DNA of 29,596 bases from a virus (taxonomy: Duplodnaviria > Heunggongvirae > Uroviricota > Caudoviricetes). The notes beneath the pieces are model-generated. The model made no database searches and was not told the origin of the DNA. It saw only the letters and a list, made by a program, of their open reading frames with translations. The stretch lies in IMG/VR virus record IMGVR_UViG_2541047905_000021. The stretch is one strand, 5' to 3'. The translations under genes and the position numbers were made by a program. This document shows positions 1,770-29,596 of the stretch, piece by piece; positions within the stretch are counted from its first letter, which is position 1, and the number at the start of each line of letters is the position of its first letter.

Positions 1770-1771
1770 TT

Positions 1772-6081: not shown

Positions 6082-6093
6082 GTTTGAAGCATA

Positions 6094-6844: not shown

Positions 6845-6868
6845 GTAAAAAAGCCGCCCGCAGGCGGC
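6845..6868 (-). terminator. Intrinsic terminator after Q (leftward operon)
   Basis: On the minus strand: GCCGCC-tgcg-GGCGGC hairpin followed by TTTTTT, directly after the Q stop codon. Confidence 0.5.
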
Positions 6869-6873
6869 GATGT

Positions 6874-9680: not shown

Positions 9681-9748
9681 GAATACCTCGCCGTGATGAA
9701 TACACGGCAAGGCTACTGAGTCGCGCCCCGCGATTCGCTAAGGTGCTG

Positions 9749-9770
9749 TTGTGTCAGTGATAAGCCATCC
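9749..9770. promoter_or_regulatory. Candidate Ogr-dependent late-promoter element (imperfect TGT-N12-ACA dyad) between divergent P and O
   Basis: TTGTGtcagtGATaAGCCAtCC; nearly the same motif recurs upstream of FI (21763-21784). Confidence 0.4.
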
Positions 9771-9853
9771 GGGACTGATGGCGGAGGATGCGCATCGTCG
9801 GGAAACTGATGCCGACATGTGACTCCTCTAATCACTATTCAGGACTCCTGACA

Positions 9854-10708: not shown

Positions 10709-10766
10709 CCGGCGTCAGTCAGTCCGGGAAAACCTTCACGATTAACCCTTAATTTCAGGAAAAACT

Positions 10767-11840: not shown

Positions 11841-11843
11841 CCG

Positions 11844-12587: not shown

Positions 12588-12686
12588 CAACCGAATGCGC
12601 CCCGCGCCAGGGCGGCACGCCGGTCAGTGAGGGTGAATCACCTGACACTGCACCGGCGTCCACCGCCCGACTTTTCAGAGGTAGTC

Positions 12687-13196
12687 ATGATGACGCTGAT
12701 TATTCCGCGAAAGGAGGCTCCCGTGTCCGGTGAGGGTACGGTGGTCATCCCGCAACCGGCAGGCGACGAGCCGGTGATTAAAAACACGTTCTTTTTTCCC
12801 GATATCGACCCGAAGCGCGTCCGGGAACGTATGCGCCTTGAGCAGACCGTCGCCCCCGCCCGTCTGCGTGAGGCTATCAAGTCAGGCATGGCGGAGACAA
12901 ATGCGGAGCTGTACGAGTATCGCGAACAGAAAATTGCCGCCGGTTTTACGCGTCTGGCGGACGTCCCGGCGGACGACATCGACGGTGAAAGCATCAAAGT
13001 TTTTTACTACGAGCGCGCCGTGTGTGCGATGGCGACCGCGTCGCTTTATGAGCGTTATCGCGGCGTGGATGCCAGTGCGAAAGGCGACAAGAAGGCTGAC
13101 AGCATTGACAGCACCATTGATGAGCTGTGGCGGGATATGCGCTGGGCGGTGGCGCGCATCCAGGGCAAGCCGCGCTGCATCGTGAGTCAAATCTGA
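12687..13196 (+). CDS. L: Head completion/stabilisation protein
   Basis: ATG at 12687 (MMTLIIPRK...) gives 169 aa; the track ORF starts 20 codons earlier at 12627. Confidence 0.8.
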   Translation: MMTLIIPRKEAPVSGEGTVVIPQPAGDEPVIKNTFFFPDIDPKRVRERMRLEQTVAPARLREAIKSGMAETNAELYEYREQKIAAGFTRLADVPADDIDGESIKVFYYERAVCAMATASLYERYRGVDASAKGDKKADSIDSTIDELWRDMRWAVARIQGKPRCIVSQI

Positions 13197-13399
13197 TGAA
13201 GACCTTTGCGCTACAGGGCGACACGCTCGACGCCATTTGTGTCCGGTATTACGGGCGCACTGAGGGCGTGGTCGAAGCCGTGCTCGCCGCAAATCCGGGA
13301 CTGGCTGAACTGGGCGCGGTGCTGCCGCACGGCACCGCCGTCGAACTGCCCGACGTTCAGACCGCGCCCGTGGCTGAAACTGTCAATCTGTGGGAGTAA
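13196..13399 (+). CDS. X: Tail protein X
   Basis: 67 aa (MKTFALQGDTLDAICVRYYGRT...); start overlaps the L stop. Confidence 0.75.
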   Translation: MKTFALQGDTLDAICVRYYGRTEGVVEAVLAANPGLAELGAVLPHGTAVELPDVQTAPVAETVNLWE

Positions 13400-13402
13400 C
13401 GC

Positions 13403-13684
13403 ATGACAGCAGAAGAAAAAAGCGTCCTGTCGCTTTTCATGATTGGGGTGCTGATTGTTGTCGGCAAGGTGCTTGCCGGTGGTGAACCCATCACCCCGCG
13501 TCTGTTTATCGGGCGCATGTTGCTCGGTGGTTTTGTCTCGATGGTTGCCGGTGTTGTTCTGGTGCAGTTTCCTGACCTGTCATTGCCTGCGGTGTGCGGT
13601 ATCGGCTCCATGCTGGGTATCGCCGGTTATCAGGTGATTGAGATTGCCATTCAGCGCCGCTTTAAGGGCAGGGGGAAACCGTAA
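13403..13684 (+). CDS. Y: Holin
   Basis: 93 aa with hydrophobic transmembrane segments and a charged C-terminus; first gene of the lysis cassette. Confidence 0.75.
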   Translation: MTAEEKSVLSLFMIGVLIVVGKVLAGGEPITPRLFIGRMLLGGFVSMVAGVVLVQFPDLSLPAVCGIGSMLGIAGYQVIEIAIQRRFKGRGKP

Positions 13685-14181
13685 TGCCGGTAATTAACAC
13701 GCATCAGAATATCGCCGCCTTTCTCGACATGCTGGCGGTATCCGAAGGGACGGCGAATCATCCGCTGACGAAAAACCGTGGCTATGACGTGATAGTCACC
13801 GGACTGGACGGGAAGCCGGAAATTTTCACCGACTACAGTGACCACCCGTTCGCGCATGGCCGACCGGCGAAGGTGTTTAACCGTCGCGGTGAAAAATCCA
13901 CGGCCTCCGGTCGCTATCAGCAGCTTTACCTGTTCTGGCCGCATTACCGCAAACAGCTTGCCCTGCCGGATTTCAGTCCGTTGTCACAGGACAGACTCGC
14001 CATTCAGTTGATCCGCGAACGCGGTGCGCTGGATGACATCCGGGCGGGACGTATTGAGCGCGCCATTTCACGCTGTCGCAATATCTGGGCGTCCCTGCCG
14101 GGAGCCGGTTACGGTCAGCGTGAGCATTCACTGGAAAAACTGGTCACCGTCTGGCGTACCGCTGGCGGCGTACCGGCTTAA
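13684..14181 (+). CDS. K: Endolysin (lysozyme-like)
   Basis: 165 aa; start overlaps the Y stop; position and size of P2 gpK. Confidence 0.85.
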   Translation: MPVINTHQNIAAFLDMLAVSEGTANHPLTKNRGYDVIVTGLDGKPEIFTDYSDHPFAHGRPAKVFNRRGEKSTASGRYQQLYLFWPHYRKQLALPDFSPLSQDRLAIQLIRERGALDDIRAGRIERAISRCRNIWASLPGAGYGQREHSLEKLVTVWRTAGGVPA

Positions 14182-14195
14182 ACGGAGTAAACACC

Positions 14196-14609
14196 ATGAA
14201 GAAATTATTCCTTTCACTGATGCTGAATGTGTCGCTGGCGCTGTCCCTGATTTACCCGCAGAGCGTGGCCGTCAATTTTGTCGCCGCCTGGGCGATTCTG
14301 GCGACGGTTATCTGTGTGGTTGCCGGTGGTGTCGGCGTGTATGCCACTGAGTATGTACTGGAACGCTACGGGCGGGAGCTGCCGCCGGAATCGCTGGCCG
14401 TGAAGATTGTCACGGCGCTGTTTTTGCAGCCGGTGCCGTGGCGCAGGCGGTCAGTGGCTCTGGTAGTGATGGTGGCGACGTTTATCTCGCTGGTCGCTGC
14501 CGGGTGGATTTTTACTGCGCTGATTTATCTCGTGGCGGCGCTGTTATTCCGGCTGATACATACGGCCTGCCGTCAGCGTCTTGAGGGGCGGGAACCATGT
14601 CAAAGCTGA
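14196..14609 (+). CDS. lysA: Lysis-timing membrane protein LysA
   Basis: 137 aa, strongly hydrophobic; GGAG Shine-Dalgarno at 14184-14187. Confidence 0.65.
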   Translation: MKKLFLSLMLNVSLALSLIYPQSVAVNFVAAWAILATVICVVAGGVGVYATEYVLERYGRELPPESLAVKIVTALFLQPVPWRRRSVALVVMVATFISLVAAGWIFTALIYLVAALLFRLIHTACRQRLEGREPCQS

Positions 14610-15022
14610 TGATTGTACTGGTTGTGTTGTTATCGCTGGCGGTGGCGGGGCTGTTTCTGGCGAAGCATGAAAACGCCAGACTGCGCGCCTCGCTGGGCAG
14701 GGCGAACAACGTCGCCAGTGAACAGCAGGCGACCATCTCCATGCTGAAAAATCAGCTTCATGTTGCGCTCACCAGGGCAGACAAAAACGAGCTGGCGCAG
14801 GTGGCACTGCGTCAGGAACTGGAGAACGCCGCGAAGCGTGAAGCACAGCGCGAGAAAACCATCACGAGGTTACTGAATGAAAACGAAGATTTCCGCCGCT
14901 GGTACGGTGCTGACCTGCCTGATGCTGTGCGCCGGTTGCACCAGCGCCCCGCCTGCACCGACGCCAGTGATTGTCCACAACGCCTGCCCGAAAGTGAGTC
15001 TTTGCCCGATGCCGGGCAGTGA
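14597..15022 (+). CDS. lysB: LysB, Rz-like inner-membrane spanin
   Basis: 141 aa, N-terminal transmembrane helix followed by a coiled-coil-like Ala/Glu/Arg-rich region. Confidence 0.7.
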   Translation: MSKLMIVLVVLLSLAVAGLFLAKHENARLRASLGRANNVASEQQATISMLKNQLHVALTRADKNELAQVALRQELENAAKREAQREKTITRLLNENEDFRRWYGADLPDAVRRLHQRPACTDASDCPQRLPESESLPDAGQ

Positions 15023-15167
15023 CCCGGAGACGAACGGCGATTTAAGTGCCGATATCCGGCAGCTTGAGAACGCGCTGGCACGCTGTGCCAGCCAGGTAAA
15101 AATGATTAAACACTGTCAGGACGAAAACGATGCTCAAACCCGACAGCCTGCGCAGGGCGCTGACTGA
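14877..15167 (+). CDS. lysC: LysC, Rz1-like outer-membrane lipoprotein spanin, out of frame within and beyond lysB
   Basis: 96 aa with signal peptide and lipobox (LMLCAGC); GAGG Shine-Dalgarno at 14866-14869; overlaps the lysB 3' end in another frame. Confidence 0.65.
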   Translation: MKTKISAAGTVLTCLMLCAGCTSAPPAPTPVIVHNACPKVSLCPMPGSDPETNGDLSADIRQLENALARCASQVKMIKHCQDENDAQTRQPAQGAD

Positions 15168-15597
15168 TGCCGTCACGGTGCTGAAAACTAACCCCGATAT
15201 GCTGCGGATATTCGTGGATAACGGGAGTATTGCCTCCACACTGGCGACGTCGCTGTCATTCGAAAAGCGTTACACGCTCAATGTGATTGTGACCGACTTT
15301 ACCGGTGATTTTGACCTGCTCATCGTGCCGGTGCTGGCGTGGCTGCGGGAAAATCAGCCCGACATCATGACCACCGACGAAGGCCAGAAAAAGGGCTTCA
15401 CGTTTTATGCAGACATCAACAATGACAGCAGCTTTGATGTCAGCATCAGCCTGATGCTGACCGAGCGCACGCTGGTCAGTGAGGTCGACGGCGCGCTGCA
15501 TGTGAAGAATATCCCGGAACCCACGCCGCCGGAGCCGGTCACCCGCCCGATGGAGCTTTATATCAATGGCGAACTGGTGAGCAAGTGGGATGAATGA
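15130..15597 (+). CDS. R: Tail completion protein R
   Basis: 155 aa, P2 gpR size and position. Confidence 0.75.
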   Translation: MLKPDSLRRALTDAVTVLKTNPDMLRIFVDNGSIASTLATSLSFEKRYTLNVIVTDFTGDFDLLIVPVLAWLRENQPDIMTTDEGQKKGFTFYADINNDSSFDVSISLMLTERTLVSEVDGALHVKNIPEPTPPEPVTRPMELYINGELVSKWDE

Positions 15598-16042
15598 GTT
15601 TAAGCGTTTTGAAGACCGGCTGGCGGGACTTATTGAATCGCTGTCACCGTCAGGGCGTCGGCGACTGAGCGCCGAACTGGCGAAACGTCTGCGGCAGAGT
15701 CAGCAGCGTCGGGTGATGGCACAGAAAGCCCCGGACGGCACACCCTACGCGCCACGCCAGCAGCAGAGCGCCAGAAAAAAGACTGGTCGTGTTAAGCGAA
15801 AAATGTTTGCGAAACTTATCACCAGTCGTTTTTTGCATATCCGCGCCAGCCCTGAACAGGCATCAATGGAATTTTACGGCGGGAAGTCACCGAAAATCGC
15901 CAGTGTGCATCAGTTCGGTCTGTCGGAAGAAAACCGGAAAGACGGTAAGAAAATTGATTATCCGGCGCGTCCTCTGCTCGGCTTTACCGGTGAGGATGTG
16001 CAGATGATTGAAGAGATTATCCTGGCTCACCTCGACCGTTAG
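15590..16042 (+). CDS. S: Tail completion protein S
   Basis: 150 aa; start overlaps the R 3' end. Confidence 0.75.
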   Translation: MNEFKRFEDRLAGLIESLSPSGRRRLSAELAKRLRQSQQRRVMAQKAPDGTPYAPRQQQSARKKTGRVKRKMFAKLITSRFLHIRASPEQASMEFYGGKSPKIASVHQFGLSEENRKDGKKIDYPARPLLGFTGEDVQMIEEIILAHLDR

Positions 16043-16108
16043 TTGTGCCATTCCCGACACCTCATCGTCACATTGCCGCCGGTATGACCCGGCGGCATCC
16101 TTCCCGTT

Positions 16109-16744
16109 ATGAACACTCTCGCAAATATCCAGGAACTCGCGCGCGCACTGCGCAACATGATCCGCACCGGCATTATCGTCGAAACCGACCTTAACGCCGG
16201 TCGCTGCCGTGTGCAGACCGGCGGCATGTGCACCGACTGGCTTCAGTGGCTGACCCATCGCGCCGGGCGTTCGCGCACATGGTGGGCACCTTCCGTGGGG
16301 GAACAGGTGCTGATTCTGTCCGTGGGCGGTGAACTCGACACGGCGTTCGTTCTGCCGGGGATTTATTCCGGCGATAACCCCGCGCCGTCTGCGTCGGCTG
16401 ATGCCCTGCATATCCGTTTCCCTGACGGGGCGGTGATTGAGTATGAACCCGAAACCAGTGCACTCACGGCAAGCGGAATTAAAACGGCCAGCGTGACGGC
16501 TTCCGGCTCTGTTACTGCCACGGTGCCGGTGGTCACGGTGAAAGCGTCAACCCGTGTCACCCTGGACACACCGGAAGTGGTCTGCACTAACAAACTGACT
16601 ACCGGCACGCTGGAAGTGCAGAAGGGCGGGACGATGCGCGGCAACATCGCGCATACCGGCGGTGAACTCTCATCAAACGGTAAGGTACTGCATACCCATA
16701 AACACCCCGGCGACAGCGGCGGCACAACCGGGAGTCCTTTATGA
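16109..16744 (+). CDS. V: Baseplate spike/assembly protein V
   Basis: 211 aa, P2 gpV size and position. Confidence 0.8.
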   Translation: MNTLANIQELARALRNMIRTGIIVETDLNAGRCRVQTGGMCTDWLQWLTHRAGRSRTWWAPSVGEQVLILSVGGELDTAFVLPGIYSGDNPAPSASADALHIRFPDGAVIEYEPETSALTASGIKTASVTASGSVTATVPVVTVKASTRVTLDTPEVVCTNKLTTGTLEVQKGGTMRGNIAHTGGELSSNGKVLHTHKHPGDSGGTTGSPL

Positions 16745-17088
16745 CAGTGCGTTATCTCGGAATGAATCGCAGTGATGGCCTGACTGTCACTGACCTTGAG
16801 CATATCAGCCAGAGTATCGGCGATATCCTGCGTACACCGGTCGGCTCGCGGGTGATGCGTCGTGATTACGGCTCGTTGCTGGCGTCAATGATTGACCAGC
16901 CGCAGACCCCGGCGCTTGAGTTGCAGATTAAGGTCGCCTGTTACATGGCGGTACTGAAATGGGAACCCCGCGTCACCCTGTCATCCGTCACCACGGCGCG
17001 CAGTTTTGACGGGCGAATGACGGTCACGTTAACCGGCCAGCACAACGACACCGGCCAGCCACTTTCGTTAACCATCCCTGTGAGTTGA
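16741..17088 (+). CDS. W: Baseplate protein W
   Basis: 115 aa; overlaps the V stop. Confidence 0.8.
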   Translation: MTVRYLGMNRSDGLTVTDLEHISQSIGDILRTPVGSRVMRRDYGSLLASMIDQPQTPALELQIKVACYMAVLKWEPRVTLSSVTTARSFDGRMTVTLTGQHNDTGQPLSLTIPVS

Positions 17089-17092
17089 AACC

Positions 17093-18001
17093 ATGCCGAT
17101 TATCGACCTGAACCAGCTACCCGCACCGGATGTGGTCGAGGAGCTGGACTTTGAAACCATTCTTGCCGAACGCAAGGCGACACTGATTTCCCTTTACCCG
17201 GAAGACCAGCAGGAGGCGGTCGCCCGTACCCTGACGCTGGAATCTGAGCCTCTCGTCAAACTGCTGGAGGAAAATGCTTATCGTGAGCTTATCTGGCGTC
17301 AGCGTGTGAATGAGGCCGCACGGGCGGTAATGCTGGCTTGTGCCGCCGGTAATGACCTTGATGTGATTGGTGCCAATTACAACACCACGCGTCTGACTAT
17401 CACCCCGGCAGATGATTCGACTATCCCGCCGACACCGGCAGTGATGGAATCTGATACCGATTATCGTCTGCGTATTCAGCAGGCGTTTGAGGGCTTAAGC
17501 GTCGCCGGGTCGGTGGGAGCCTATCAGTATCATGGTCGCAGTGCCGACGGGCGTGTCGCGGATATCTCTGTCACCAGTCCGTCTCCGGCCTGCGTCACCA
17601 TCTCTGTGCTGTCCCGTGAAAATAACGGTGTCGCATCCGAAGACCTGCTGGCGGTGGTGCGTAACGCCCTTAATGGCGAGGACGTCAGACCGGTGGCCGA
17701 CCGCGTGACCGTGCAGTCTGCCGCCATCGTTGAATACCAGATAAACGCCACGCTTTACCTTTACCCTGGTCCCGAAAGCGAACCCATTCGCGCGGCCGCC
17801 GTGAAAAAGCTGGAAGCGTACATCACGGCACAGCACCGGCTGGGGCGCGACATCCGTCTGTCTGCCATTTATGCCGCTTTGCATGTGGAAGGCGTGCAGC
17901 GTGTCGAACTGACTGCACCGCTGGCCGACATCGTGCTCAACAGTACGCAGGCGTCTTTCTGTACCGAATACCGCGTCGTGACCGGAGGCTCGGATGAGTG
18001 A
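17093..18001 (+). CDS. J: Baseplate protein J
   Basis: 302 aa, P2 gpJ size and position. Confidence 0.85.
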   Translation: MPIIDLNQLPAPDVVEELDFETILAERKATLISLYPEDQQEAVARTLTLESEPLVKLLEENAYRELIWRQRVNEAARAVMLACAAGNDLDVIGANYNTTRLTITPADDSTIPPTPAVMESDTDYRLRIQQAFEGLSVAGSVGAYQYHGRSADGRVADISVTSPSPACVTISVLSRENNGVASEDLLAVVRNALNGEDVRPVADRVTVQSAAIVEYQINATLYLYPGPESEPIRAAAVKKLEAYITAQHRLGRDIRLSAIYAALHVEGVQRVELTAPLADIVLNSTQASFCTEYRVVTGGSDE

Positions 18002-18524
18002 TTCGCGACTGCTGCCGACCGGCTCATCACCGCTTGAAGTTGCTGCCGCAAAAGCCTGTGCGGAAATTGAAAAAACGCCGGTCAGGATTCGTGAACTGTG
18101 GAACCCGGATACCTGTCCGGCAAATCTGCTGCCGTGGCTGGCGTGGGCGTTTTCGGTCGACAGGTGGGATGAAAAGTGGCCGGAAGCGACAAAACGCGCC
18201 GTTATCCGCGATGCCTATTTCATCCACTGTCATAAAGGCACTATAGGCGCAATCCGGCGTGTGGTGGAGCCGCTCGGTTATCTCATTAACGTAAAGGAAT
18301 GGTGGGAGACAAACGACCCGCCCGGAACCTTCCGCCTTGATATCGGCGTACTGGAAAGCGGCATCACGGAGGAGATGTATCTGGAAATGGAACGGCTGAT
18401 TGCCGATGCCAAACCCGCAAGTCGCCACCTTATCGGTCTGAACATTATCCAGGACATTCCCGGCTGTCTGTATACAGGCGGTGTGGTCTGTGATGGTGAT
18501 GTTATTACTGTTTATCCCGGATAA
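17994..18524 (+). CDS. I: Baseplate protein I
   Basis: 176 aa; GGAGG Shine-Dalgarno at 17984-17988. Confidence 0.8.
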   Translation: MSDSRLLPTGSSPLEVAAAKACAEIEKTPVRIRELWNPDTCPANLLPWLAWAFSVDRWDEKWPEATKRAVIRDAYFIHCHKGTIGAIRRVVEPLGYLINVKEWWETNDPPGTFRLDIGVLESGITEEMYLEMERLIADAKPASRHLIGLNIIQDIPGCLYTGGVVCDGDVITVYPG

Positions 18525-18534
18525 GTGAGAAACA

Positions 18535-21144
18535 ATGAGCACGAAATTTAAAACCGTTATCACTACTGCCGGAGCCGCAAAGCTGGCAGCCGCCACTGTC
18601 CCCGGCGGGAAAAAAGTAAACCTGTCTGCAATGGCCGTGGGTGACGGTAATGGCAAATTGCCGGTGCCGGATGCCGGTCAGACGAAGCTGGTGCATGAGG
18701 TCTGGCGTCATGCCCTGAATAAAGTCAGCGTGGATAATAAGAATAAAAACTATATCGTGGCTGAACTGGTTGTTCCGCCAGAAGTGGGCGGCTTCTGGAT
18801 GCGTGAGCTTGGTCTGTATGACGATGCCGGAACACTGATTGCGGTATCCAACATGGCAGAAAGCTATAAGCCAGAACTGGCTGAAGGCTCAGGACGTGCG
18901 CAGACCTGCCGCATGGTTATTATTCTCAGCAACGTGGCGTCCGTTGAGCTGAGTATTGATGCCAGCACAGTGATGGCGACGCAGGATTACGTCGATGACA
19001 AAATCGCAGAGCATGAGCAGTCCCGCCGCCATCCTGACGCCACGCTGACAGAAAAAGGTTTTACTCAGTTAAGCAGTGCAACAAACAGCACCAGTGAAAA
19101 GCTGGCGGCAACGCCAAAAGCGGTCAAGGCAGCAAATGACAACGCAAATTCACGTCTGGCGAAAAATCAGAACGGTGCAGATATCCAGGATAAATCAGCT
19201 TTTCTGGACAATATTGGTGTTACCAGCCTGACGTTTATGAAAAACAACGGCGAAATGCCTGTTGATGCCGACCTGAATACATTTGGTCCTGTTAAGGCTT
19301 ATTCAGGTATCTGGTCTAAAGCAACATCCACCAACGCAACACTGGAGAAAAACTTCCCTGAAGATAATGCTGTCGGTGTGCTTGAGGTTTTTACTGGCGG
19401 CAATTTTGCAGGCACGCAACGCTATACCACACGTGACGGAAATTTGTATATCCGCAAACTCATTGGAACATGGAATGGTAATGATGGACCATGGGGAGCA
19501 TGGCGCCATGTTCAGGCTGTAACGCGAGCTCTAAGTACGACCATTGACCTTAACTCTCTCGGTGGCGCAGAACATTTAGGTCTATGGAGAAACAGCAGTT
19601 CAGCAATAGCTTCTTTTGAACGACATTACCCCGAGCAGGGAGGAGACGCGCAGGGCATTCTGGAAATTTTCGAAGGTGGGCGATATGGACGCACACAGCG
19701 TTATACAACCAGTAACGGGACTATGTATATTCGCGGCCTGACAGCCAAATGGGATGCAGAAAATCCACAGTGGGAAGACTGGATCCAAATTGGTTATCAG
19801 ACCAGTAGTACCTTCTATGAGGATGACCTGGATGATTTGATGTCTCCGGGTATTTACAGTGTGACAGGCAAAGCGACCCACACCCCAATCCAGGGGCAGT
19901 CTGGTTTTCTGGAAGTCATCAGGCGCAAGGATGGTGTCTATGTTTTGCAACGTTACACGACCACAGGAACCAGCGCAGCTACAAAAGACCGTTTATATGA
20001 GCGAGTGTTTCTTGGTGGCTCATTTAACGCGTGGGGGGAGTGGCGACAGATTTATAACTCAAACTCTTTGCCGTTAGAGTTGGGTATCGGTGGCGCAGTG
20101 GCAAAACTCACCAGCCTGGACTGGCAGACATACGATTTTGTGCCGGGCAGTCTGATAACCGTTCGGCTGGATAACATGACCAATATTCCCGACGGTATGG
20201 ACTGGGGCGTCATTGATGGCAACCTGATAAACATCTCAGTCGGTCCGAGTGATGATTCTGGTTCGGGACGCTCAATGCATGTATGGCGCAGCACTGTAAG
20301 TAAAGCCAACTACCGCTTTTTTATGGTGCGTATTTCAGGAAATCCGGGAAGCCGCACGATTACAGCAAGACGAGTACCAATCATTGACGAAGCCCAGACA
20401 TGGGGCGCGAAACAGACATTCAGTGCTGGCCTTTCTGGTGAACTGTCCGGCAATGCGGCGACAGCAACAAAGCTGAAAACGGCAAGGACAATTAACGGCG
20501 TAAAATTTGACGGCTCGGCAAATATTGAAGCGTTTCCGCCAGGTGTTCCGCTGCCGTGGCCATCAGATACACCACCTGCAGGCTATGCAATTATGCAGGG
20601 GCAGACGTTTGATAAGGCAGCATATCCTAAACTGGCTATTGCCTATCCTTCTGGTGTTATTCCAGATATGCGCGGCTGGACAATCAAGGGCAAACCCGCC
20701 AGTGGACGTGCTGTATTGTCACAGGAACAGGACGGGATTAAATCGCATACTCACAGCGCCAGTGCGTCAAATACGGATTTAGGGACGAAAACGACCAGTT
20801 CATTTGATTACGGCACGAAGACAGTCAGTACGTTTAACCATGGCACAAAATCAACGAACAATACGGGCAATCATACGCACACTGTCGGTGGTGTTTATGG
20901 CGGCGACTCTGTCGGTGGAAAACAGCGTGTACAGGCTTCAGGAAACAATCAGGTGTCCAGCACAGCCGGAGCGCACGCCCATACGGTGGATATTGGTCAG
21001 CATAACCACACTGTAGGTATTGGTGCCCATGCACACACTGTAGCATTAGGTGCGCACGGGCACACCATCACGGTAAATGCTACGGGTAATACCGAAAACA
21101 CCGTCAAAAACATCGCATTTAACTATATTGTGAGGCTTGCATAA
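18535..21144 (+). CDS. H: Tail fibre protein (conserved N-terminus, mosaic C-terminus)
   Basis: 869 aa; first ~200 residues match remembered P2 gpH ([19 protein letters not shown]...[16 protein letters not shown]...). The C-terminal part carries three tandem ~55-aa repeats, a tail-collar-like motif and His-x-His repeats. Confidence 0.85.
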
Positions 21145-21722
21145 TGGCTTTCAGAATGAGTGCAGAAGCACAAACTATCCGCGTTTTCAATTTACTTAAT
21201 GGAACCAATGAGTTTATTGGCGAAAGTGATGCATATATTCCGCCGTATACTGGCCTGCCTGCAAACAGTACAGATATTGCACCACCTGATATTCCTGCTG
21301 GTTATGCAGCCGTTTTCAATGCAGATGAAATGAAATGGGAACTGATGGAAGACCATCGCGGAAAGACCGTCTACGAAACGAAAACAGGAGCAGCCATTTA
21401 TATTTCTGAACTTGGCGTATTACCTCCAGACGTGACAGCTATTTCCCCGGAGGGGGATTATCAGAAATGGGACGGAAATGCGTGGGTGAATGATGAGAAT
21501 GCAGAACGTGATGCGCTTGTCAGAGCGGCGGAGTCTCAGAAGAAAGAGCAGATTGCATATGCAGGTGAAATTATTGCCACTCTGCAGGATGCTGTCGATT
21601 TAGATATGGCTACCGAGGAAGAAAAGTTAAGCCTGACACACTGGAAAAAATACCGTGTGCTACTGAATCGCGTTCAGCCGGAAAATGCCCCGGATATTGA
21701 ATGGCCGGAACTACCGCAATAA
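21144..21722 (+). CDS. G: Tail fibre assembly chaperone
   Basis: 192 aa immediately after H with overlapping stop/start, the usual fibre-chaperone arrangement. Confidence 0.7.
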
Positions 21723-21728
21723 ACACAG

Positions 21729-21750
21729 GCGGGCTTATTGTCCGCTTTTT
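21729..21750 (+). terminator. Intrinsic terminator after G
   Basis: GCGGGC-ttatt-GTCCGC hairpin (one G-U pair) followed by TTTTT. Confidence 0.45.
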
Positions 21751-21762
21751 CTTTATCGGTGG

Positions 21763-21784
21763 TTGTGCTGTCGATTAGCCAACC
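21763..21784 (+). promoter_or_regulatory. Candidate Ogr-dependent late-promoter element upstream of FI
   Basis: TTGTGctgtcGATtAGCCAaCC, about 80 bp upstream of the FI ATG; same motif as at 9749-9770. Confidence 0.4.
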
Positions 21785-21854
21785 GGGACAAATAGCCTGA
21801 CATCTCCGGCACAACTGAAAATACCACTCACCCATTAACCACGGAGTTAAACGG

Positions 21855-23045
21855 ATGAGTGACTATCATCACGGCGTGCAGGTGCTGGAGATTAACGACG
21901 GCACCCGCGTCATTTCCACCGTATCTACTGCCATTGTCGGCATGGTCTGCACGGCCAGCGATGCGGATGCGGAAACCTTCCCCCTCAATAAACCGGTGCT
22001 GATTACCAATGTGCAGAGCGCAATTGCAAAGGCTGGTAAAAAAGGCACGCTGGCGGCATCGTTGCAGGCCATCGCCGACCAGTCAAAACCGGTCACCGTT
22101 GTCGTGCGTGTGGAAGACGGCACCGGCGACGACGAGGAAACGAAACTCGCGCAGACCGTTTCCAATATCATCGGCACCACCGACGAAAACGGTCAGTACA
22201 CCGGACTGAAAGCCCTGCTGGCGGCGGAGTCGGTAACCGGTGTTAAACCGCGTATTCTCGGCGTGCCGGGACTGGACACCAAAGAGGTGGCTGTTGCACT
22301 GGCATCAGTCTGTCAGAAGCTGCGCGCTTTCGGGTATATCAGCGCATGGGGCTGTAAAACTATTTCCGAGGTGAAAGCCTACCGCCAGAATTTCAGCCAG
22401 CGTGAGTTGATGGTCATCTGGCCGGATTTCCTCGCATGGGATACGGTCACCAGTACCACCGCCACCGCGTATGCCACCGCCCGTGCGCTGGGTCTGCGCG
22501 CTAAAATCGACCAGGAGCAGGGCTGGCATAAAACACTGTCCAACGTTGGGGTGAACGGTGTTACCGGCATCAGCGCATCTGTATTCTGGGATTTGCAGGA
22601 GTCCGGCACCGATGCTGACCTGCTTAACGAGTCAGGCGTCACAACACTGATTCGCCGTGACGGTTTCCGCTTCTGGGGTAACCGTACCTGCTCTGATGAC
22701 CCGCTGTTCCTCTTTGAAAACTACACCCGCACCGCGCAGGTACTGGCCGACACGATGGCTGAGGCGCACATGTGGGCGGTGGACAAGCCCATCACCGCAA
22801 CGCTGATTCGCGACATCGTTGACGGCATCAATGCCAAATTCCGAGAGCTGAAAACAAACGGCTATATCGTGGATGCGACCTGCTGGTTCAGTGAAGAATC
22901 CAACGATGCGGAAACCCTCAAGGCCGGAAAACTGTATATCGACTACGACTATACCCCGGTGCCTCCTCTTGAAAACCTGACCCTGCGCCAGCGTATTACT
23001 GATAAATACCTGGCAAATCTGGTCACCTCGGTTAACAGCAATTAA
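21855..23045 (+). CDS. FI: Tail sheath protein
   Basis: 396 aa, GGAG Shine-Dalgarno; P2 gpFI size and position. Confidence 0.9.
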   Translation: MSDYHHGVQVLEINDGTRVISTVSTAIVGMVCTASDADAETFPLNKPVLITNVQSAIAKAGKKGTLAASLQAIADQSKPVTVVVRVEDGTGDDEETKLAQTVSNIIGTTDENGQYTGLKALLAAESVTGVKPRILGVPGLDTKEVAVALASVCQKLRAFGYISAWGCKTISEVKAYRQNFSQRELMVIWPDFLAWDTVTSTTATAYATARALGLRAKIDQEQGWHKTLSNVGVNGVTGISASVFWDLQESGTDADLLNESGVTTLIRRDGFRFWGNRTCSDDPLFLFENYTRTAQVLADTMAEAHMWAVDKPITATLIRDIVDGINAKFRELKTNGYIVDATCWFSEESNDAETLKAGKLYIDYDYTPVPPLENLTLRQRITDKYLANLVTSVNSN

Positions 23046-23057
23046 GGAGCCTGACCG

Positions 23058-23576
23058 ATGGCAATGCCGCGCAAACTCAAGTTAATGAACGTCTTTCTGA
23101 ACGGCTACAGCTATCAGGGCGTTGCAAAGTCCGTCACGCTGCCAAAACTGACCCGTAAGCTCGAAAACTATCGCGGTGCGGGGATGAACGGCAGCGCACC
23201 GGTAGACCTCGGCCTTGATGACGATGCGCTGTCAATGGAGTGGTCGCTCGGGGGCTTCCCGGATTCGGTTATCTGGGAGCTTTACGCCGCAACCGGCGTG
23301 GATGCCGTGCCGATTCGTTTTGCAGGCTCTTACCAGCGCGACGATACCGGCGAAACGGTGGCCGTCGAAGTGGTCATGCGTGGACGTCAGAAAGAAATCG
23401 ACACCGGCGAGGGCAAACAGGGAGAAGACACCGAGTCGAAAATCTCCGTGGTCTGCACCTATTTCCGGCTGACGATGGACGGTAAGGAGCTGGTCGAAAT
23501 TGACACCATCAACATGATTGAAAAGGTGAACGGCGTCGACCGGCTGGAGCAACACCGCCGCAATATCGGCCTGTGA
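23058..23576 (+). CDS. FII: Tail tube protein
   Basis: 172 aa, AAGGAG Shine-Dalgarno at 23043-23048. Confidence 0.9.
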   Translation: MAMPRKLKLMNVFLNGYSYQGVAKSVTLPKLTRKLENYRGAGMNGSAPVDLGLDDDALSMEWSLGGFPDSVIWELYAATGVDAVPIRFAGSYQRDDTGETVAVEVVMRGRQKEIDTGEGKQGEDTESKISVVCTYFRLTMDGKELVEIDTINMIEKVNGVDRLEQHRRNIGL

Positions 23577-23632
23577 TTTTCATCCGGTCAGCCTGGCTGG
23601 CCGGTTAACCCTGATTCAGAAGTGAGAAAACC

Positions 23633-23908
23633 ATGAACAAAGAAAATGTCATTACCCTGGACAATCCGGTCAAACGTGGTGAGCAGGTTATCGAACAGGT
23701 CACGCTGATGAAACCCAATGCCGGGACGCTACGCGGTGTCAGTCTGGCTGCGGTTGCAAACTCCGAAGTCGATGCACTGATTAAGGTGCTGCCGCGCATG
23801 ACGGCACCGATGCTGACCGAGCAGGAAGTCGCCGCGCTGGAACTGCCTGACCTTGTGGCGCTGGCCGGTAAGGTGGTCGGTTTTTTGTCGCCGAACTCGG
23901 TGCAGTGA
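23633..23908 (+). CDS. E: Tail assembly chaperone E
   Basis: 91 aa; contains the slippery heptamer T_TTT_TTG (23881-23887) near its 3' end. Confidence 0.8.
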   Translation: MNKENVITLDNPVKRGEQVIEQVTLMKPNAGTLRGVSLAAVANSEVDALIKVLPRMTAPMLTEQEVAALELPDLVALAGKVVGFLSPNSVQ

Positions 23909-24060
23909 CGTTTCCAAAAAATCTCTCGGTCGATGACCTGATGGCGGATGTGGCAGTGATATTTCACTGGCCGCCATCAGAACTGTATCCCATGAGCCTG
24001 ACCGAACTCATCACATGGCGCGAAAAGGCGCTCCGGCGAAGCGGAAACACGAATGAGTAA
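23633..24060 (+). CDS. E: E+E' fusion made by programmed -1 ribosomal frameshift at 23881-23887
   Basis: After a -1 slip on TTTTTTG the frame stays open to TAA at 24058-24060, encoding ...VAELGAVTFPKNLSVDDLMADVAVIFHWPPSELYPMSLTELITWREKALRRSGNTNE; analogous to P2 E/E' and lambda G/GT. Confidence 0.6.
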
Positions 24061-26500
24061 CAATGTAAAATTACAGGTATTGCTCAGGGCTGTTGACCAG
24101 GCATCCCGCCCGTTTAAATCCATCCGCACAGCGAGTAAGTCGCTGTCGGGGGATATCCGGGAAACACAAAAATCACTGCGCGAGCTGAACGGTCACGCAT
24201 CCCGTATTGAGGGATTTCGCAAGACCAGCGCACAGCTTGCCGTGACTGGTCATGCACTTGAAAAGGCACGGCAGGAAGCCGAAGCCCTTGCCACACAGTT
24301 TAAAAACACTGAACGTCCGACCCGTGCTCAGGCGAAAGTGCTGGAATCCGCAAAGCGTGCGGCGGAGGACTTACAGGCGAAATATAACCGCCTGACAGAT
24401 TCCATTAAACGCCAGCAGCGGGAACTGGCCGCTGTGGGAATTAATACCCGCAATCTTGCACATGATGAGCAGGGACTGAAAAACCGTATCAGTGAAACCA
24501 CCGCACAGCTTAACCGTCAGCGTGACGCGCTGGCGCGTGTCAGTGCACAACAGGCAAAACTTAACGCAGTAAAACAGCGTTATCAGGCCGGAAAGGAACT
24601 GGCCGGAAATATGGCCTCAGTGGGCGCTGCCGGTGTGGGGATTGCTGCTGCGGGAACGATGGCCGGAGTTAAGTTGCTGATGCCCGGTTATGAGTTTGCG
24701 CAGAAAAACTCAGAATTGCAGGCTGTGCTCGGTGTGGCAAAAGACTCCGCCGAAATGGCTGCACTACGCAAGCAGGCGCGCCAGCTCGGCGACAATACCG
24801 CAGCCTCGGCAGATGATGCAGCCGGTGCGCAGATTATTATTGCGAAAGCCGGTGGGGATGTTGATGCCATTCAGGCGGCAACGCCGGTCACGCTGAATAT
24901 GGCGCTGGCGAACCGTCGCACGATGGAAGAAAACGCCGCCCTGCTGATGGGGATGAAATCCGCCTTTCAGCTTTCAAACGATAAGGTCGCTCATATCGGG
25001 GATGTTCTCTCCATGACGATGAACAAAACCGCCGCCGATTTTGACGGTATGAGCGATGCGCTGACCTATGCCGCACCAGTGGCAAAAAATGCCGGTGTCA
25101 GCATTGAAGAAACCGCCGCAATGGTCGGGGCGCTGCATGACGCAAAAATTACTGGTTCAATGGCGGGGACGGGAAGCCGTGCCGTGTTAAGCCGCCTGCA
25201 GGCACCGACGGGAAAAGCATGGGATGCACTCAAAGAGCTTGGTGTGAAAACCTCAGACAGCAAGGGAAATACCCGACCAGTATTTACCATTCTGAAAGAA
25301 ATGCAGGCCAGTTTTGAGAAAAACCGGCTCGGTACTGCCCAGCAGGCTGAATACATGAAAACTATTTTCGGGGAGGAGGCCAGCTCAGCCGCCGCCGTGC
25401 TGATGACTGCCGCCTCAACTGGAAAGCTGGACAAACTGACCGCTGCGTTTAAAGCCTCAGACGGGAAGACCGCTGAGCTGGTAAATATCATGCAGGACAA
25501 CCTCGGCGGTGACTTTAAGGAGTTTCAGTCCGCTTATGAGGCGGTGGGGACTGACCTGTTTGACCAGCAGGAAGGCGCACTGCGTAAGCTCACGCAGACG
25601 GCCACAAAGTATGTGTTAAAACTCGACGGCTGGATACAGAAAAACAAATCACTGGCGTCAACCATCGGCATCATTGTCGGTGGTGCACTGGCGCTGATTG
25701 GTGTCATCGGTGCCATTGGCCTCGTAGCCTGGCCGGTTATCACCGGCATCAATGCCATCATCGCGGCAGCAGGCGCAATGGGAGCAATCTTCACGACGGT
25801 TGGCAGTGCTGTTATGACGGCCATCGGGGCGATTAGCTGGCCGGTTGTGGCCGTGGTGGCCGCCATTGTCGCCGGGGCGTTACTTATCCGTAAATACTGG
25901 GAGCCTGTCAGCGCATTCTTTGGCGGTGTGGTTGAAGGGCTGAAAGCGGCATTTGCGCCGGTGGGGGAACTGTTCACGCCACTTAAGCCGGTGTTTGACT
26001 GGCTGGGCGAAAAGTTACAGGCCGCGTGGCAGTGGTTTAAAAACCTGATTGCCCCGGTCAAAGCCACCCGGGACACCCTGAACCGTTGCCGTGATACGGG
26101 CGTCATGTTCGGGCAGGCACTGGCTGACGCGTTGATGCTGCCGCTTAATGCGTTCAACAAACTGCGCAGCGGTATTGACTGGGTACTGGAAAAACTCGGT
26201 GTTATCAACAAAGAGTCAGGCACGCTTGACCAGACCGCCGCCAGAACTCATGCCGCCACGTATGGCACCGGTGGTTATATTCCGGCGACCAGCTCTTATG
26301 CAGGCTATCAGGCTTATCAGCCGGTCACGGCACCGGCTGGCCGCTCTTATGTGGACCAGAGTAAAAACGAATATCACATCAGCCTGACGGGTGGTACTGC
26401 ACCGGGGACACAGCTTGACCGCCAGTTACAGGATGCGCTCGAAAAATACGAGCGGGATAAACGTGCGCGCGCCCGTGCCAGCATGATGCATGACGGTTAA
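24053..26500 (+). CDS. T: Tail tape-measure protein
   Basis: 815 aa, coiled-coil-rich N-terminal half and hydrophobic Gly/Ala-rich segment; start overlaps the E' end. Confidence 0.85.
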   Translation: MSNNVKLQVLLRAVDQASRPFKSIRTASKSLSGDIRETQKSLRELNGHASRIEGFRKTSAQLAVTGHALEKARQEAEALATQFKNTERPTRAQAKVLESAKRAAEDLQAKYNRLTDSIKRQQRELAAVGINTRNLAHDEQGLKNRISETTAQLNRQRDALARVSAQQAKLNAVKQRYQAGKELAGNMASVGAAGVGIAAAGTMAGVKLLMPGYEFAQKNSELQAVLGVAKDSAEMAALRKQARQLGDNTAASADDAAGAQIIIAKAGGDVDAIQAATPVTLNMALANRRTMEENAALLMGMKSAFQLSNDKVAHIGDVLSMTMNKTAADFDGMSDALTYAAPVAKNAGVSIEETAAMVGALHDAKITGSMAGTGSRAVLSRLQAPTGKAWDALKELGVKTSDSKGNTRPVFTILKEMQASFEKNRLGTAQQAEYMKTIFGEEASSAAAVLMTAASTGKLDKLTAAFKASDGKTAELVNIMQDNLGGDFKEFQSAYEAVGTDLFDQQEGALRKLTQTATKYVLKLDGWIQKNKSLASTIGIIVGGALALIGVIGAIGLVAWPVITGINAIIAAAGAMGAIFTTVGSAVMTAIGAISWPVVAVVAAIVAGALLIRKYWEPVSAFFGGVVEGLKAAFAPVGELFTPLKPVFDWLGEKLQAAWQWFKNLIAPVKATRDTLNRCRDTGVMFGQALADALMLPLNAFNKLRSGIDWVLEKLGVINKESGTLDQTAARTHAATYGTGGYIPATSSYAGYQAYQPVTAPAGRSYVDQSKNEYHISLTGGTAPGTQLDRQLQDALEKYERDKRARARASMMHDG

Positions 26501-26514
26501 GGAGGTGACGAAAA

Positions 26515-26994
26515 ATGATGCTCGCGTTAGGTATGTTTGTTTTTATGCGCCAGACGCTGCCACACCAGACCATGCAGCGTGAATCAGATTATCGCTGGCC
26601 GTCAAATTCCCGTATCGGTAAACGGGATGCCTACCAGTTTCTCGGCGTTGGTGAGGAAAACATGACGCTTGCCGGTGTGCTTTATCCCGAACTGACCGGC
26701 GGCAAGCTGACGATGACCACGCTCAGACTGATGGCAGAGGAAGGCCGGGCGTGGCCGTTGCTGGATGGCACCGGCATGATTTACGGCATGTATGTCATCA
26801 GCAAGGTGAGTGAAACAGGGAGTATTTTCTTTGCAGACGGCACACCCCGGAAAATTGATTTTACGCTGTCGCTCACCCGCGTTGATGAATCACTGGCCGC
26901 GCTTTATGGCGATATCGGTAAACAGGCGGAATCGCTCATCGGTAAGGCTGGCAGTATGGCGACTAAATTCACGGGTATGACGGGGGCGGGATAA
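26515..26994 (+). CDS. U: Tail protein U
   Basis: 159 aa; AGGAGG Shine-Dalgarno at 26500-26505. Confidence 0.8.
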   Translation: MMLALGMFVFMRQTLPHQTMQRESDYRWPSNSRIGKRDAYQFLGVGEENMTLAGVLYPELTGGKLTMTTLRLMAEEGRAWPLLDGTGMIYGMYVISKVSETGSIFFADGTPRKIDFTLSLTRVDESLAALYGDIGKQAESLIGKAGSMATKFTGMTGAG

Positions 26995-28157
26995 TGCTGG
27001 ATGCACTGACATTTGATGCAGGCAGTACGCTGACGCCGGATTACATGCTGATGCTCGACAGCAGGGATATTACCGGCAATATCAGCGACCGTCTGATGAG
27101 CATGACCCTGACGGATAACCGGGGCTTTGAGGCTGACCAGCTTGATATTGAACTGAACGATGCCGACGGGCAGGTCGGACTACCGATTCGTGGCGCTGTC
27201 CTGACGGTGTATATCGGCTGGAAAGGTTTTGCCCTGGTATGCAAAGGGAAATTTACCGTTGATGAGGTTGAACACCGGGGCGCACCGGATGTGGTCACCA
27301 TCCGCGCCCGGAGTGCAGATTTTCGCGGGACGCTCAATTCCCGCCGTGAAGGCTCATGGCATGACACCACGCTCGGTGCGATTGTTGAGGCGATAGCCTC
27401 CCGTAACAGGCTGGAAGCCAGTGTCGCTCCGTCACTGGCCGGAATTAAAATCCCGCACATCGACCAGTCGCAGGAGTCTGATGCGAAATTTCTGACCCGT
27501 CTTGCAGAACGCAACGGCGGTGAGGTGTCGGTAAAAATGGGAAAACTGCTGTTTCTCAAAGCGGGGCAGGGGGTGACGGCCAGCGGTAAAAAAATCCCGC
27601 AGGTCACCATCACCCGCAGCGACGGTGACCGCCATCATTTTGCGATTGCTGACCGTGGAGCCTACACCGGCGTAACGGCAAAGTGGTTACACACCAAAGA
27701 CCCGAAGCCGCAAAAGCAGAAGGTAAAACTGAAACGCAAAAAGAAAGAAAAACACCTGCGCGCACTGGAGCACCCGAAAGCAAAACCGGTCAGGCAGAAG
27801 AAAGCGCCAAAAGTACCGGAAGCGCGCGAAGGTGAATACATGGCCGGTGAGGCTGACAACGTTTTTGCCCTGACCACGGTATATGCCACGAAAGCACAGG
27901 CCATGCGTGCCGCTCAGGCGAAGTGGGATAAACTGCAACGGGGCGTTGCGGAGTTCTCCATCAGCCTGGCTACCGGTCGTGCTGATATTTACACGGAAAC
28001 ACCGGTTAAAGTATCAGGCTTTAAGCGCGTCATAGACGAGCAGGACTGGACAATCACTAAGGTGACACATTTTCTGAATAATAGCGGCTTCACGACGTCC
28101 TTAGAGCTTGAGGTCAGGCTTTCTGATGTGGAGTACGAAACAGAAGATGATGAGTGA
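26994..28157 (+). CDS. D: Tail protein D
   Basis: 387 aa; start overlaps the U stop; last gene of the tail operon. Confidence 0.85.
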   Translation: MLDALTFDAGSTLTPDYMLMLDSRDITGNISDRLMSMTLTDNRGFEADQLDIELNDADGQVGLPIRGAVLTVYIGWKGFALVCKGKFTVDEVEHRGAPDVVTIRARSADFRGTLNSRREGSWHDTTLGAIVEAIASRNRLEASVAPSLAGIKIPHIDQSQESDAKFLTRLAERNGGEVSVKMGKLLFLKAGQGVTASGKKIPQVTITRSDGDRHHFAIADRGAYTGVTAKWLHTKDPKPQKQKVKLKRKKKEKHLRALEHPKAKPVRQKKAPKVPEAREGEYMAGEADNVFALTTVYATKAQAMRAAQAKWDKLQRGVAEFSISLATGRADIYTETPVKVSGFKRVIDEQDWTITKVTHFLNNSGFTTSLELEVRLSDVEYETEDDE

Positions 28158-28238
28158 TGTAATTTATTTATCTGTTTGTTTTATAAGGATAAATTAACTA
28201 AAATGGCACTATCAACAAAACCGGAAGAGGTGCTCGCG

Positions 28239-28457
28239 ATGTTTCATTGTCCTTTATGCCAGCATGCCGCACATGCGCGTACAAGCCGCTATATCACTGA
28301 CACGACAAAAGAGCGTTATCACCAGTGTCAGAACGTGAATTGCAGCGCCACGTTCATCACCTATGAGTCGGTACAGAGATACATCGTGAAGCCGGGAGAA
28401 GTCCACGCCGTAAGGCCGCACCCGTTGCCGTCAGGGCAGCAAATTATGTGGATGTGA
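28239..28457 (+). CDS. ogr: Ogr late-gene transcriptional activator (C4 zinc finger)
   Basis: ATG at 28239 with GGAAGAGG upstream gives 72 aa, MFHCPLCQHAAHARTSRYITDTTKERYHQCQNVNC..., matching remembered P2 Ogr almost residue for residue; the track ORF starts 21 codons earlier. Confidence 0.9.
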   Translation: MFHCPLCQHAAHARTSRYITDTTKERYHQCQNVNCSATFITYESVQRYIVKPGEVHAVRPHPLPSGQQIMWM

Positions 28458-28520
28458 TCACAAAAATAGCCCCTCAGTTGAGGGGCTTTATTTATGGTCG
28501 ATGTGGACGCTATGTGGACA
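28445..28520 (+). promoter_or_regulatory. Candidate Int arm-type binding sites in attR (three direct ATGTGGA(C) repeats)
   Basis: ATGTGGA at 28446-28452, ATGTGGAC at 28501-28508, ATGTGGACA at 28512-28520; an IHF-like sequence TATCATcaggTTAG follows at about 28542-28555. Confidence 0.35.
28468..28495 (+). terminator. Intrinsic terminator after ogr
   Basis: AGCCCCTC-agtt-GAGGGGCT hairpin followed by a T-rich tract. Confidence 0.6.
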
Positions 28521-28585
28521 GCGGTTGACATAAATCCATTTATATCATCAGGTTAGGTGCTTTTTTTTGACACCATCCCTGTCTT

Positions 28586-28612
28586 CCCCCACATGCTGTG
28601 GGGGTTTTTTTT
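28586..28612 (+). terminator. Strong intrinsic terminator directly upstream of the fieF promoter region, probably chromosomal
   Basis: CCCCCACA-tgc-TGTGGGGG hairpin followed by T8. Confidence 0.6.
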
Positions 28613-28693
28613 ATCCTCAATTTGCCTGCTGCTTAATGCATTGCAGATGATTTGCTTCCGTTATACTAGCGTCAGTTGATAGCGGGAGTATTT

Positions 28694-29596
28694 ATGAATC
28701 AATCTTATGGACGGCTGGTCAGTCGGGCGGCGATTGCTGCGACGGCGATGGCTTCGCTGCTATTGCTGATTAAAATTTTTGCATGGTGGTATACCGGGTC
28801 GGTGAGTATTCTCGCCGCGCTGGTGGATTCGCTGGTGGATATCGGCGCGTCGTTGACGAATTTATTGGTGGTGCGATATTCCCTGCAACCTGCCGACGAT
28901 AATCACTCGTTTGGTCACGGTAAAGCTGAGTCCCTCGCGGCGCTGGCGCAAAGTATGTTTATCTCCGGTTCGGCACTATTCCTGTTTTTGACGGGTATTC
29001 AACATCTGATATCTCCAACACCGATGACAGATCCAGGCGTCGGGGTTATCGTGACAATTGTGGCGCTAATTTGTACGATTATCCTTGTCTCGTTTCAGCG
29101 TTGGGTGGTGCGGCGGACGCAAAGCCAGGCGGTGCGGGCTGATATGCTACATTACCAGTCTGATGTTATGATGAACGGCGCAATTCTGCTGGCGCTGGGG
29201 TTGTCCTGGTACGGCTGGCATCGCGCCGATGCTCTGTTTGCATTGGGAATCGGCATCTATATTTTATATAGCGCGTTACGCATGGGATATGAGGCGGTAC
29301 AGTCATTACTGGATCGCGCATTGCCTGATGAGGAACGGCAAGAAATTATTGATATCGTGACTTCCTGGCCGGGTGTTAGCGGCGCTCACGATCTTCGCAC
29401 GCGGCAGTCAGGGCCGACCCGCTTTATTCAGATTCATTTGGAAATGGAAGACTCTCTGCCTTTGGTTCAGGCACATATGGTGGCGGATCAGGTAGAGCAG
29501 GCTATTTTACGGCGTTTTCCGGGATCGGATGTAATTATCCATCAGGACCCCTGTTCCGTCGTACCCAGGGAGGGTAAACGGTCTATGCTTTCATAA
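28694..29596 (+). CDS. fieF: Cation-diffusion-facilitator ferrous-iron/zinc efflux transporter FieF (YiiP)
   Basis: 300 aa from [23 protein letters not shown]...; recognised as enterobacterial FieF; GGGAG Shine-Dalgarno at 28684-28688; the track ORF adds 6 upstream codons. Confidence 0.95.

Follow-up and report, generated by a model that had tools for sequence, protein, structure and literature searches.

A WPhi-type prophage next to fieF

The window, by which we mean the whole 29,596-nt stretch of DNA analyzed here, extends from the stop codon of the integrase gene int (position 1) to the stop codon of fieF (29596). Comparison with the genome of phage WPhi by blastn places int at the window start and the whole prophage inside the window, with three aligned blocks: window positions 1-5778 correspond to WPhi 22712-28489, positions 6686-19140 to WPhi 1-12466, and positions 21725-28615 to WPhi 15710-22596. 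The window content is that of a complete WPhi-type prophage minus attL, plus fieF. At the right end, gene D and ogr are followed by a spacer of 236 bp and then by fieF (Table 1). The gene order ogr-attP-int of WPhi and R18C fits an arrangement of attL-int...ogr-attR in the window, and the element encodes its cognate tyrosine integrase beside the att region of the circular form. The closest complete-genome match across ogr, attR and fieF is 99.8% identical, and an identical 95-nt attR occurs in two genomes whose prophages differ in length. Taken together with the evidence below, the region from 28445 to 28693 is very probably the attR junction of a WPhi-type P2-like prophage, composed of P arm, core and B' flank.

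Table 1. Features at the ends of the window and at the attR junction
Feature	Position	Strand	Remarks
Tyrosine integrase gene, WPhi-type Int	1-981	-	325/326 aa identical to phage WPhi integrase (99.7%)
Gene D	26994-28157		Window right end, before ogr
ogr, late-gene activator	28239-28457	+	Open reading frame; last phage gene before attR; ogrK annotated at the homologous VG48B2 position
Third repeat, ATGTGGA (then T, not C)	28446-28452	+	7-mer in last ogr codons, ATT ATG TGG ATG TGA
ogr terminator hairpin	28468-28487	both	Terminator-like; fold -15.8 kcal/mol, z = -4.5
Int arm-type site 1 (P arm), ATGTGGAC	28501-28508	+	Exact; consensus tgTGGaCa
Int arm-type site 2 (P arm), ATGTGGAC	28512-28519	+	11 bp after site 1, start to start
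IHF-like site, TATCATCAGGTTA	28543-28555	+	One mismatch to WATCARNNNNTTR; between arm sites and core
Sub-threshold Hrs1 matches	28546-28612; intact site L001 1472-1544	-	
Common core, 47 bp (attP = attB)	28569-28615	+	Last 44 nt of CpxQ gene plus ATC, by sequence and position
Candidate 7-bp overlap, CCATCCC	28573-28579	+	Inferred; flanked by GACA/TGTC inverted repeat; loop of first small CpxQ hairpin
CpxQ/cpxP Rho-independent terminator	28586-28612	+	8-bp stem CCCCCACA/TGTGGGGG (28586-28604), 3-nt loop TGC, T8 at 28605-28612
Host cpxP-fieF intergenic DNA, unaltered (fieF upstream region)	28616-28693	+	Identical to empty sites
fieF, CDF cation efflux transporter	28694-29596	+	

Two parts of the prophage depart from WPhi. 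Between cos and the replication gene A, a stretch of roughly 900 bp (5779-6685) is without a WPhi match and holds no open reading frame longer than 88 aa; it stands in place of the WPhi cargo genes orf91, orf92, cytosine methylase, gp96 and gp98. The variable cargo locus between gene A and cos, reportedly a hotspot, therefore appears to be empty in this prophage. Further along, at 19141-21854, neither the C-terminal part of the gene H tail fiber nor the assembly gene G (21144-21722) is related to its WPhi counterpart. The gap between G and FI is 132 bp, and this other variable cargo locus is also empty.

Limits of the att core

A 651-bp junction query was matched on its host side in 5426 of 5426 complete E. 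coli genomes, and 691 of the 5426 (12.7%) contain the ogr-attR-fieF junction itself. Prophage-free E. coli genomes align only from 28569 rightwards. Free phages (64 phage records, including WPhi, R18C at 99.9% identity, L-413C, fiAA91-ss, Yersinia phages and others) align only up to 28615. Because the phage matches end at 28615 and the empty-site matches start at 28569, the core is 47 bp long. The same block is common to attB, attL, attR and attP, with clean breakpoints on both sides, in a six-way alignment in which the window was set against a K-12-like empty site, both junctions (attL and attR) of strain VG48B2, and the attP regions of R18C and WPhi. The core, which the original prediction could not confirm from the window, was thereby resolved through alignment with the prophage-free cpxP-fieF region.

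At its left end the core contains GACACCATCCCTGTC, in which a GACA/TGTC inverted repeat surrounds 7 bp. The strong hairpin and T8 run that had been predicted at 28586-28612 were confirmed as an 8-bp stem followed by T8, and the final 44 nt of CpxQ, at 28569-28612, have a folding energy of -16.5 kcal/mol (z = -2.9). The core takes in this whole terminator plus 17 nt upstream, in agreement with the suggestion that it would lie in or next to the terminator. To the right of the terminator, the sequence expected to be the fieF upstream region is indeed host intergenic DNA leading up to the fieF start.

Arm-type repeats and the IHF-like site

The phage side of the junction holds the ogr terminator, which ends in an imperfect tail (TTATTTAT), followed by two tandem copies of ATGTGGAC. 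The P2-type arm consensus is tgTGGaCa, with at least two direct repeats per arm (PMC3448106). As a word, ATGTGGAC is expected by chance at ~0.99 copies per window; one further exact copy lies at 26349 of the 29.6-kb window, and at least three copies arose in 7 of 100 shuffles. Given their tandem phasing, their match to the consensus and the matching pair on the int side in relatives, the two copies next to the core are real arm-type sites. The int-side pair forms part of the P' arm, which lies outside the window and was found as GTGTGGACACTATGTGGACAC in attL and attP of relatives. Three ATGTGGA(C) repeats had been noted originally and all are present, but only two are credible arm sites. We rejected the third as an arm site: it is a 7-mer only, of a kind with an estimated chance expectation of ~3-4 in the window, it lies within the ogr coding sequence, and it is probably a coincidence.

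The IHF-like sequence reported between ogr and the terminator is likewise present, with one mismatch to the consensus. Matches at this level number 43 in the window versus 34 expected, so the site is not significant alone; its position is nonetheless kept in diverged P arms, where it reads TATCAGTAGGTTA (a perfect match), TATCATTATGTTA or TATCAGTGTGTTG. A T8 run separates the IHF-like site from the GACA/TGTC element of the core.

Since each of these short motifs is, taken alone, weakly or not significant, one could regard the repeats, the IHF-like site and the hairpin as regulatory elements or chance occurrences in the ogr-fieF spacer with no connection to recombination. That explanation has practically no chance of being correct and is refuted by the phage/host homology breakpoints, which fall exactly at 28569 and 28615. 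It is further contradicted by the same arm-site pair on the int side of the core, by an integrase 99.7% identical to that of WPhi, and by an architecture that agrees with the P2 remnant of K-12 up to the core.

The core as the 3' end of the CpxQ small RNA

CpxQ is a small RNA (sRNA) of ~60 nt that depends on Hfq and is cut by RNase E from the cpxP 3'UTR, of which it makes up almost the whole (PMC9438474, PMC4817254). In the empty site, taaaccctgTTTTCCTTGCCATA lies between the cpxP stop codon and the core, which starts 23 nt past the stop. The cpxP 3'UTR to the end of the T8 run measures 67 nt in the empty site, and T8 ends 3 nt before the end of the core. For the 5' end of CpxQ we relied on the position at which it reportedly lies, alongside the ~60-nt length. 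Given the length of CpxQ and its span of the 3'UTR, together with the position of the core after the cpxP stop codon, the core is, judged from the sequence, the last 44 nt of the ~58-60-nt CpxQ, terminator included, plus ATC. In the fold of the 58-nt CpxQ RNA, a small hairpin, (A)GACA-CCAUCCC-UGUC(U), precedes the terminator.

Rfam 15 gave no match to a CpxQ family. The best hit was Hrs1 (RF02628), with 28.8 bits for the fragment in the window and 44.5 bits for intact E. coli CpxQ against a gathering score of 56.4, and on the opposite strand. Hrs1 is an sRNA of Erwinia amylovora encoded between cpxP and fieF on the same strand as cpxP (PMC4070566), and the sequence in the Rfam model seems to be the reverse complement of the actual RNA.

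The left junction could be read in four complete lysogens, VG48B2, XH2172, 2014EL-1343-2 and M15, which are relatives of the window prophage and not its own genome. In all four, attL consists of cpxP, the full 3'UTR, the core and the P' arm with GTGTGGACACTATGTGGACAC, followed by int, and the cpxP 3'UTR matches that of the empty site base for base. The prophage thus has cpxP as its left neighbor in these strains, as had been anticipated from the K-12 gene order. The proposal that the phage integrated at the 3' end of an sRNA-bearing transcript, in the manner of integration at tRNA and tmRNA genes, also holds in these relatives, in which the CpxQ-bearing 3'UTR is rebuilt at attL. As the window begins at the int stop codon, its own attL lies ~115-165 bp to the left of position 1, and is expected to read from the cpxP stop codon through TAAACCCTGTTTTCCTTGCCATA, the core with A in the terminator loop and the P' arm with GTGTGGACACTATGTGGACAC to the int stop.

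The identity block between phage and host ends 3 bp past T8, and the RNA gene is intact at one junction only, attL. The attR copy is limited to the final 44 nt of CpxQ, with phage DNA standing where the empty site has the first ~14 nt (UUUUCCUUGCCAUA), and the fragment follows ogr and phage arm DNA, not cpxP, while keeping the Rho-independent hairpin plus U-tail. The attR hairpin is therefore an orphan 3' fragment of CpxQ and not the live end of a cpxP transcript, the functional copy being at attL. The terminator had been taken as a possible 3' end of the upstream host transcript; it is the CpxQ/cpxP terminator, but at attR it is orphaned and lacks the first ~14 nt of the sRNA. For annotation this means that neither a phage gene nor a new sRNA should be assigned to the attR hairpin, which is to be labeled as an orphan CpxQ fragment.

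An orphan with an intact 3' end could conceivably be expressed from attP or attR, for example by read-through from ogr, and act as a truncated CpxQ mimic or an Hfq decoy, in which case the long core would serve the phage beyond restoration of the host gene. The fragment does keep the terminator hairpin and U8 tail, which form an Hfq-binding module, as well as the single-stranded CU-rich stretch upstream of them; the U-rich phage sequence just 5' of it (GGUGCUUUUUUUU) resembles what may be an RNase E-type site, and the imperfect tail of the ogr terminator would favor read-through. On the other hand, that terminator does lie upstream, no promoter for the fragment (sigma-70) was predicted between ogr and the core, and the length of the core is already explained by restoration of the host gene. 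In P2, ogr is a late gene, and it would presumably be silent in lysogens. We consider such a role of the fragment very unlikely.

Position of strand exchange

The window has a C at terminator loop position 28596, where K-12, WPhi and R18C have an A. Positions 28596 (A/C) and 28604 (G/T) are both polymorphic in the host population; of the 56 empty sites sampled in E. coli, five had C in the loop, DETEC-E223 being an empty-site strain that carries it, and all other genera sampled had A. We followed the two positions through a census of 203 core loci drawn from IMG/VR, GTDB representative genomes and metagenomes and sorted by their flanks, with a search pattern that fixed all other core positions, such that variants left of the loop could not show. 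With the alleles written in the order 28596/28604, the E. coli attB sites comprised 50 AG, five CG, one AT and no CT, and the attR sites 39 AG, five CG, one CT and six AT. At attL there were 49 AG and one AT, with no CG or CT. All attP sites were AG (four, plus three of the Salmonella type), with no CG, CT or AT. The difference between attL and attR in the presence of any variant is significant (Fisher p = 0.002; 0.008 with identical contexts de-duplicated), although the samples are not phylogenetically independent. Where attL and attR of the same genome or contig were discordant, the variant was in attR in five of five pairs.

Because host variants go with attR, and almost never with attL or attP, we infer that strand exchange takes place to the left of 28596. 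The census supports a crossover on the 5' side of the identity block, with the 3' part of the gene being element-derived in lysogens. Within this interval strand exchange probably occurs at CCATCCC (28573-28579), where the cleavage positions are putative ones.

The same att site could instead be used with an exchange centered on the terminator hairpin, where CCCCCACA and TGTGGGGG would be the core-type Int sites and the overlap would span the loop. The attL hairpin would then be a host/phage hybrid and not phage-derived. In favor of this, no inverted repeat in the core is longer than that of the hairpin, the 27-bp core of P2 itself sits on the CyaR terminator, and integrases that use tRNA genes are said to cross over often in a stem-loop. 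The allele distribution is difficult to reconcile with this arrangement. Both variants occur in attR and in empty sites, whereas C at 28596 is seen in 0 of 50 attL and 0 of 7 attP and T at 28604 in only 1 of 50 attL, and at the empty-site allele frequency the chance of finding no C among 50 attL is 0.009. Furthermore, an A/C heterology within the overlap would normally inhibit recombination, yet products of A-phage by C-host crosses exist. We judge a hairpin-centered exchange to be unlikely and favor exchange at the left end of the core.

With exchange at the left end, integration may be pictured as follows. The heterobivalent Int (encoded at 1-981) would bind the two arm-type repeats at 28501-28519 with its N-terminal domain, IHF would presumably bend the DNA at 28543-28555, and the core-binding and catalytic domains of Int would act on the core. 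GACA and TGTC would serve as the two core-type half-sites with CCATCCC between them. To the right of the exchange the phage would supply the remaining ~36 bp, so that an intact cpxP-CpxQ-terminator unit is rebuilt at attL beside int. The hairpin of the live CpxQ gene at attL would then be phage-derived, and the original host hairpin and U-tail would be moved ~29 kb away to attR, where they would remain as an orphan fragment downstream of ogr and a second terminator before fieF, with the fieF upstream region left untouched. CpxQ expression would be unchanged in lysogens. The working CpxQ gene of about one E. coli genome in eight probably has a 3' part of phage origin.

Relation to known integration systems

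The WPhi attB is said to have had its primary description in 2006. Since WPhi and L-413C are published to integrate at MG1655 coordinate 4104392 (PMC3448106) and prophage Wphi1 of E. coli W at cpxP-fieF (PMC3032704), the site and its recombinase have already been described, and the feature in the window is the attR of a known phage type at a known site. With 325 of 326 integrase residues identical, the same gene order and the same chromosomal site, the window contains the same system as WPhi, L-413C and R18C. The WPhi attP core equals the window core over the 47 bp except for the host-derived loop base; unlike WPhi, the window prophage is without the gene A-cos cargo and has a different tail-fiber end. 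Both earlier reports (PMC3448106, PMC3032704) were published before CpxQ was discovered in 2016 and describe the site as intergenic, and in the literature searched we found no paper linking CpxQ to P2-like phages, prophages, attL or integrase. What the present analysis adds is the identity of the core as the last 44 nt of CpxQ, as read from sequence and position, the population evidence for a 5'-side crossover, and the parallel between WPhi at CpxQ and P2 at CyaR.

The parallel with P2 can be followed in K-12, in which a cryptic P2 remnant (ogrK-D', beside cyaR; locus L203, 1100-1200) shares the terminator, the arm repeats and the IHF-like site with the window up to ~28548. The P-arm layout is also alike, in the order ogr, terminator, two TGTGGAC-type repeats, IHF-like site and core. 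The 27-bp sequence AAAAAATAAGCCCGTGTAAGGGAGATT of the remnant, which we take to be the P2 core, is the reverse complement of the CyaR 3' terminator (Rfam RF00112 CyaR_RyeE, 100.7 bits, minus strand). P2 differs in the length of its core, 27 bp versus 47 bp, and in its target, CyaR versus CpxQ. In addition, the sRNA is convergent with ogr in P2 and co-directional with it in WPhi, and it follows from this orientation that the intact sRNA is at attR in P2 and at attL in WPhi. P2 and WPhi thus differ by a swapped core module, which in each is the terminator of an Hfq-dependent sRNA. Targeting of sRNA genes by prophages has been published, with ryeE (CyaR) and ryeB as known cases (PMC3603311). With WPhi at CpxQ and P2 at CyaR, two members of one phage family have cores that correspond to Hfq-dependent sRNA terminators, and this pair supports a general rule by which phages prefer to land at the 3' ends of sRNAs, as they do at those of tRNAs.

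Other members of the P2 family integrate at the 3' ends of tRNA or tmRNA genes, namely 186 (tRNA-Ile), HP1 (tRNA-Leu), and Fels-2 and SopEPhi (ssrA). Unlike these, the target here is a regulatory RNA derived from an mRNA 3'UTR and is not tRNA-like. As in the lambda attP paradigm, a heterobivalent tyrosine integrase is combined with sites of the arm and core types, between which a putative IHF site lies here; lambda differs in having a 15-bp intergenic core with no gene to restore, and in using Xis where Cox serves here. The arm sites in the window are P2-type (tgTGGaCa) and not 186-type (PMC3448106).

Possible antisense transcription across attL

In the VG48B2 attL (locus L003, 5397-5512), the stretch from the int stop codon to cpxP has no predicted intrinsic terminator on the int-sense strand. 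The constitutive Pc-C-int transcript of the prophage leaves int in the leftward direction and may continue across attL, where it would be antisense to both CpxQ and cpxP. In the circular phage, by comparison, the two-way ogr terminator at 28468-28487 would lie in the path of this transcript. If so, integration would give the int mRNA a different 3' end and also generate an RNA antisense to CpxQ. Furthermore, if the terminator hairpin of the live CpxQ gene is phage-derived, phage alleles would replace host alleles in the live copy, as with loop A of the phage and C of the host. By these two routes, antisense transcription through CpxQ and cpxP and replacement of the host hairpin alleles, WPhi-type lysogeny would not be neutral for the Cpx envelope-stress response, and the noncoding arm of that response would be modulated by a prophage in ~13% of E. 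coli genomes. We regard this scenario as speculative and rather improbable.

Distribution of the core and of prophage remnants

Among representative genomes, the exact 47 bp are found after cpxP in Salmonella, Citrobacter, Enterobacter, Kluyvera, Yokenella, Pluralibacter, Erwinia, Edwardsiella and several Escherichia species, and several of these loci have an adjacent int and TGTGGAC repeats. The identity of the core as part of CpxQ explains how the same site can serve across genera. It also explains the unusual length of the core, which has to restore both a conserved regulatory RNA and the terminator of that RNA. Right flanks reading AGGCACTTAG or AATAACTTAG in Salmonella and Citrobacter were considered as a sign of a second, unrelated element family on the same core, and this was rejected. 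One Salmonella locus (L060) has, beside the core, a gene for a 326-aa homolog of WPhi Int. In Citrobacter amalonaticus (L065, 1092-2990), a 1.9-kb islet between the core and fieF contains open reading frames of 339 and 154 aa and no integrase. The islet starts with AATAACTTAG; given the similarity of this sequence to the beginning of the phage P' arm (AAT[CTA]ACTTAC), the islet is probably a decayed prophage end.

Degraded WPhi-type prophages, with both cores at cpxP and fieF, were also seen in strain XH2172 (L002, ~16 kb) and in a contig from a food metagenome (L162, 13.5 kb). As these are still bounded by the core, the site gathers remnants as well as intact phages.
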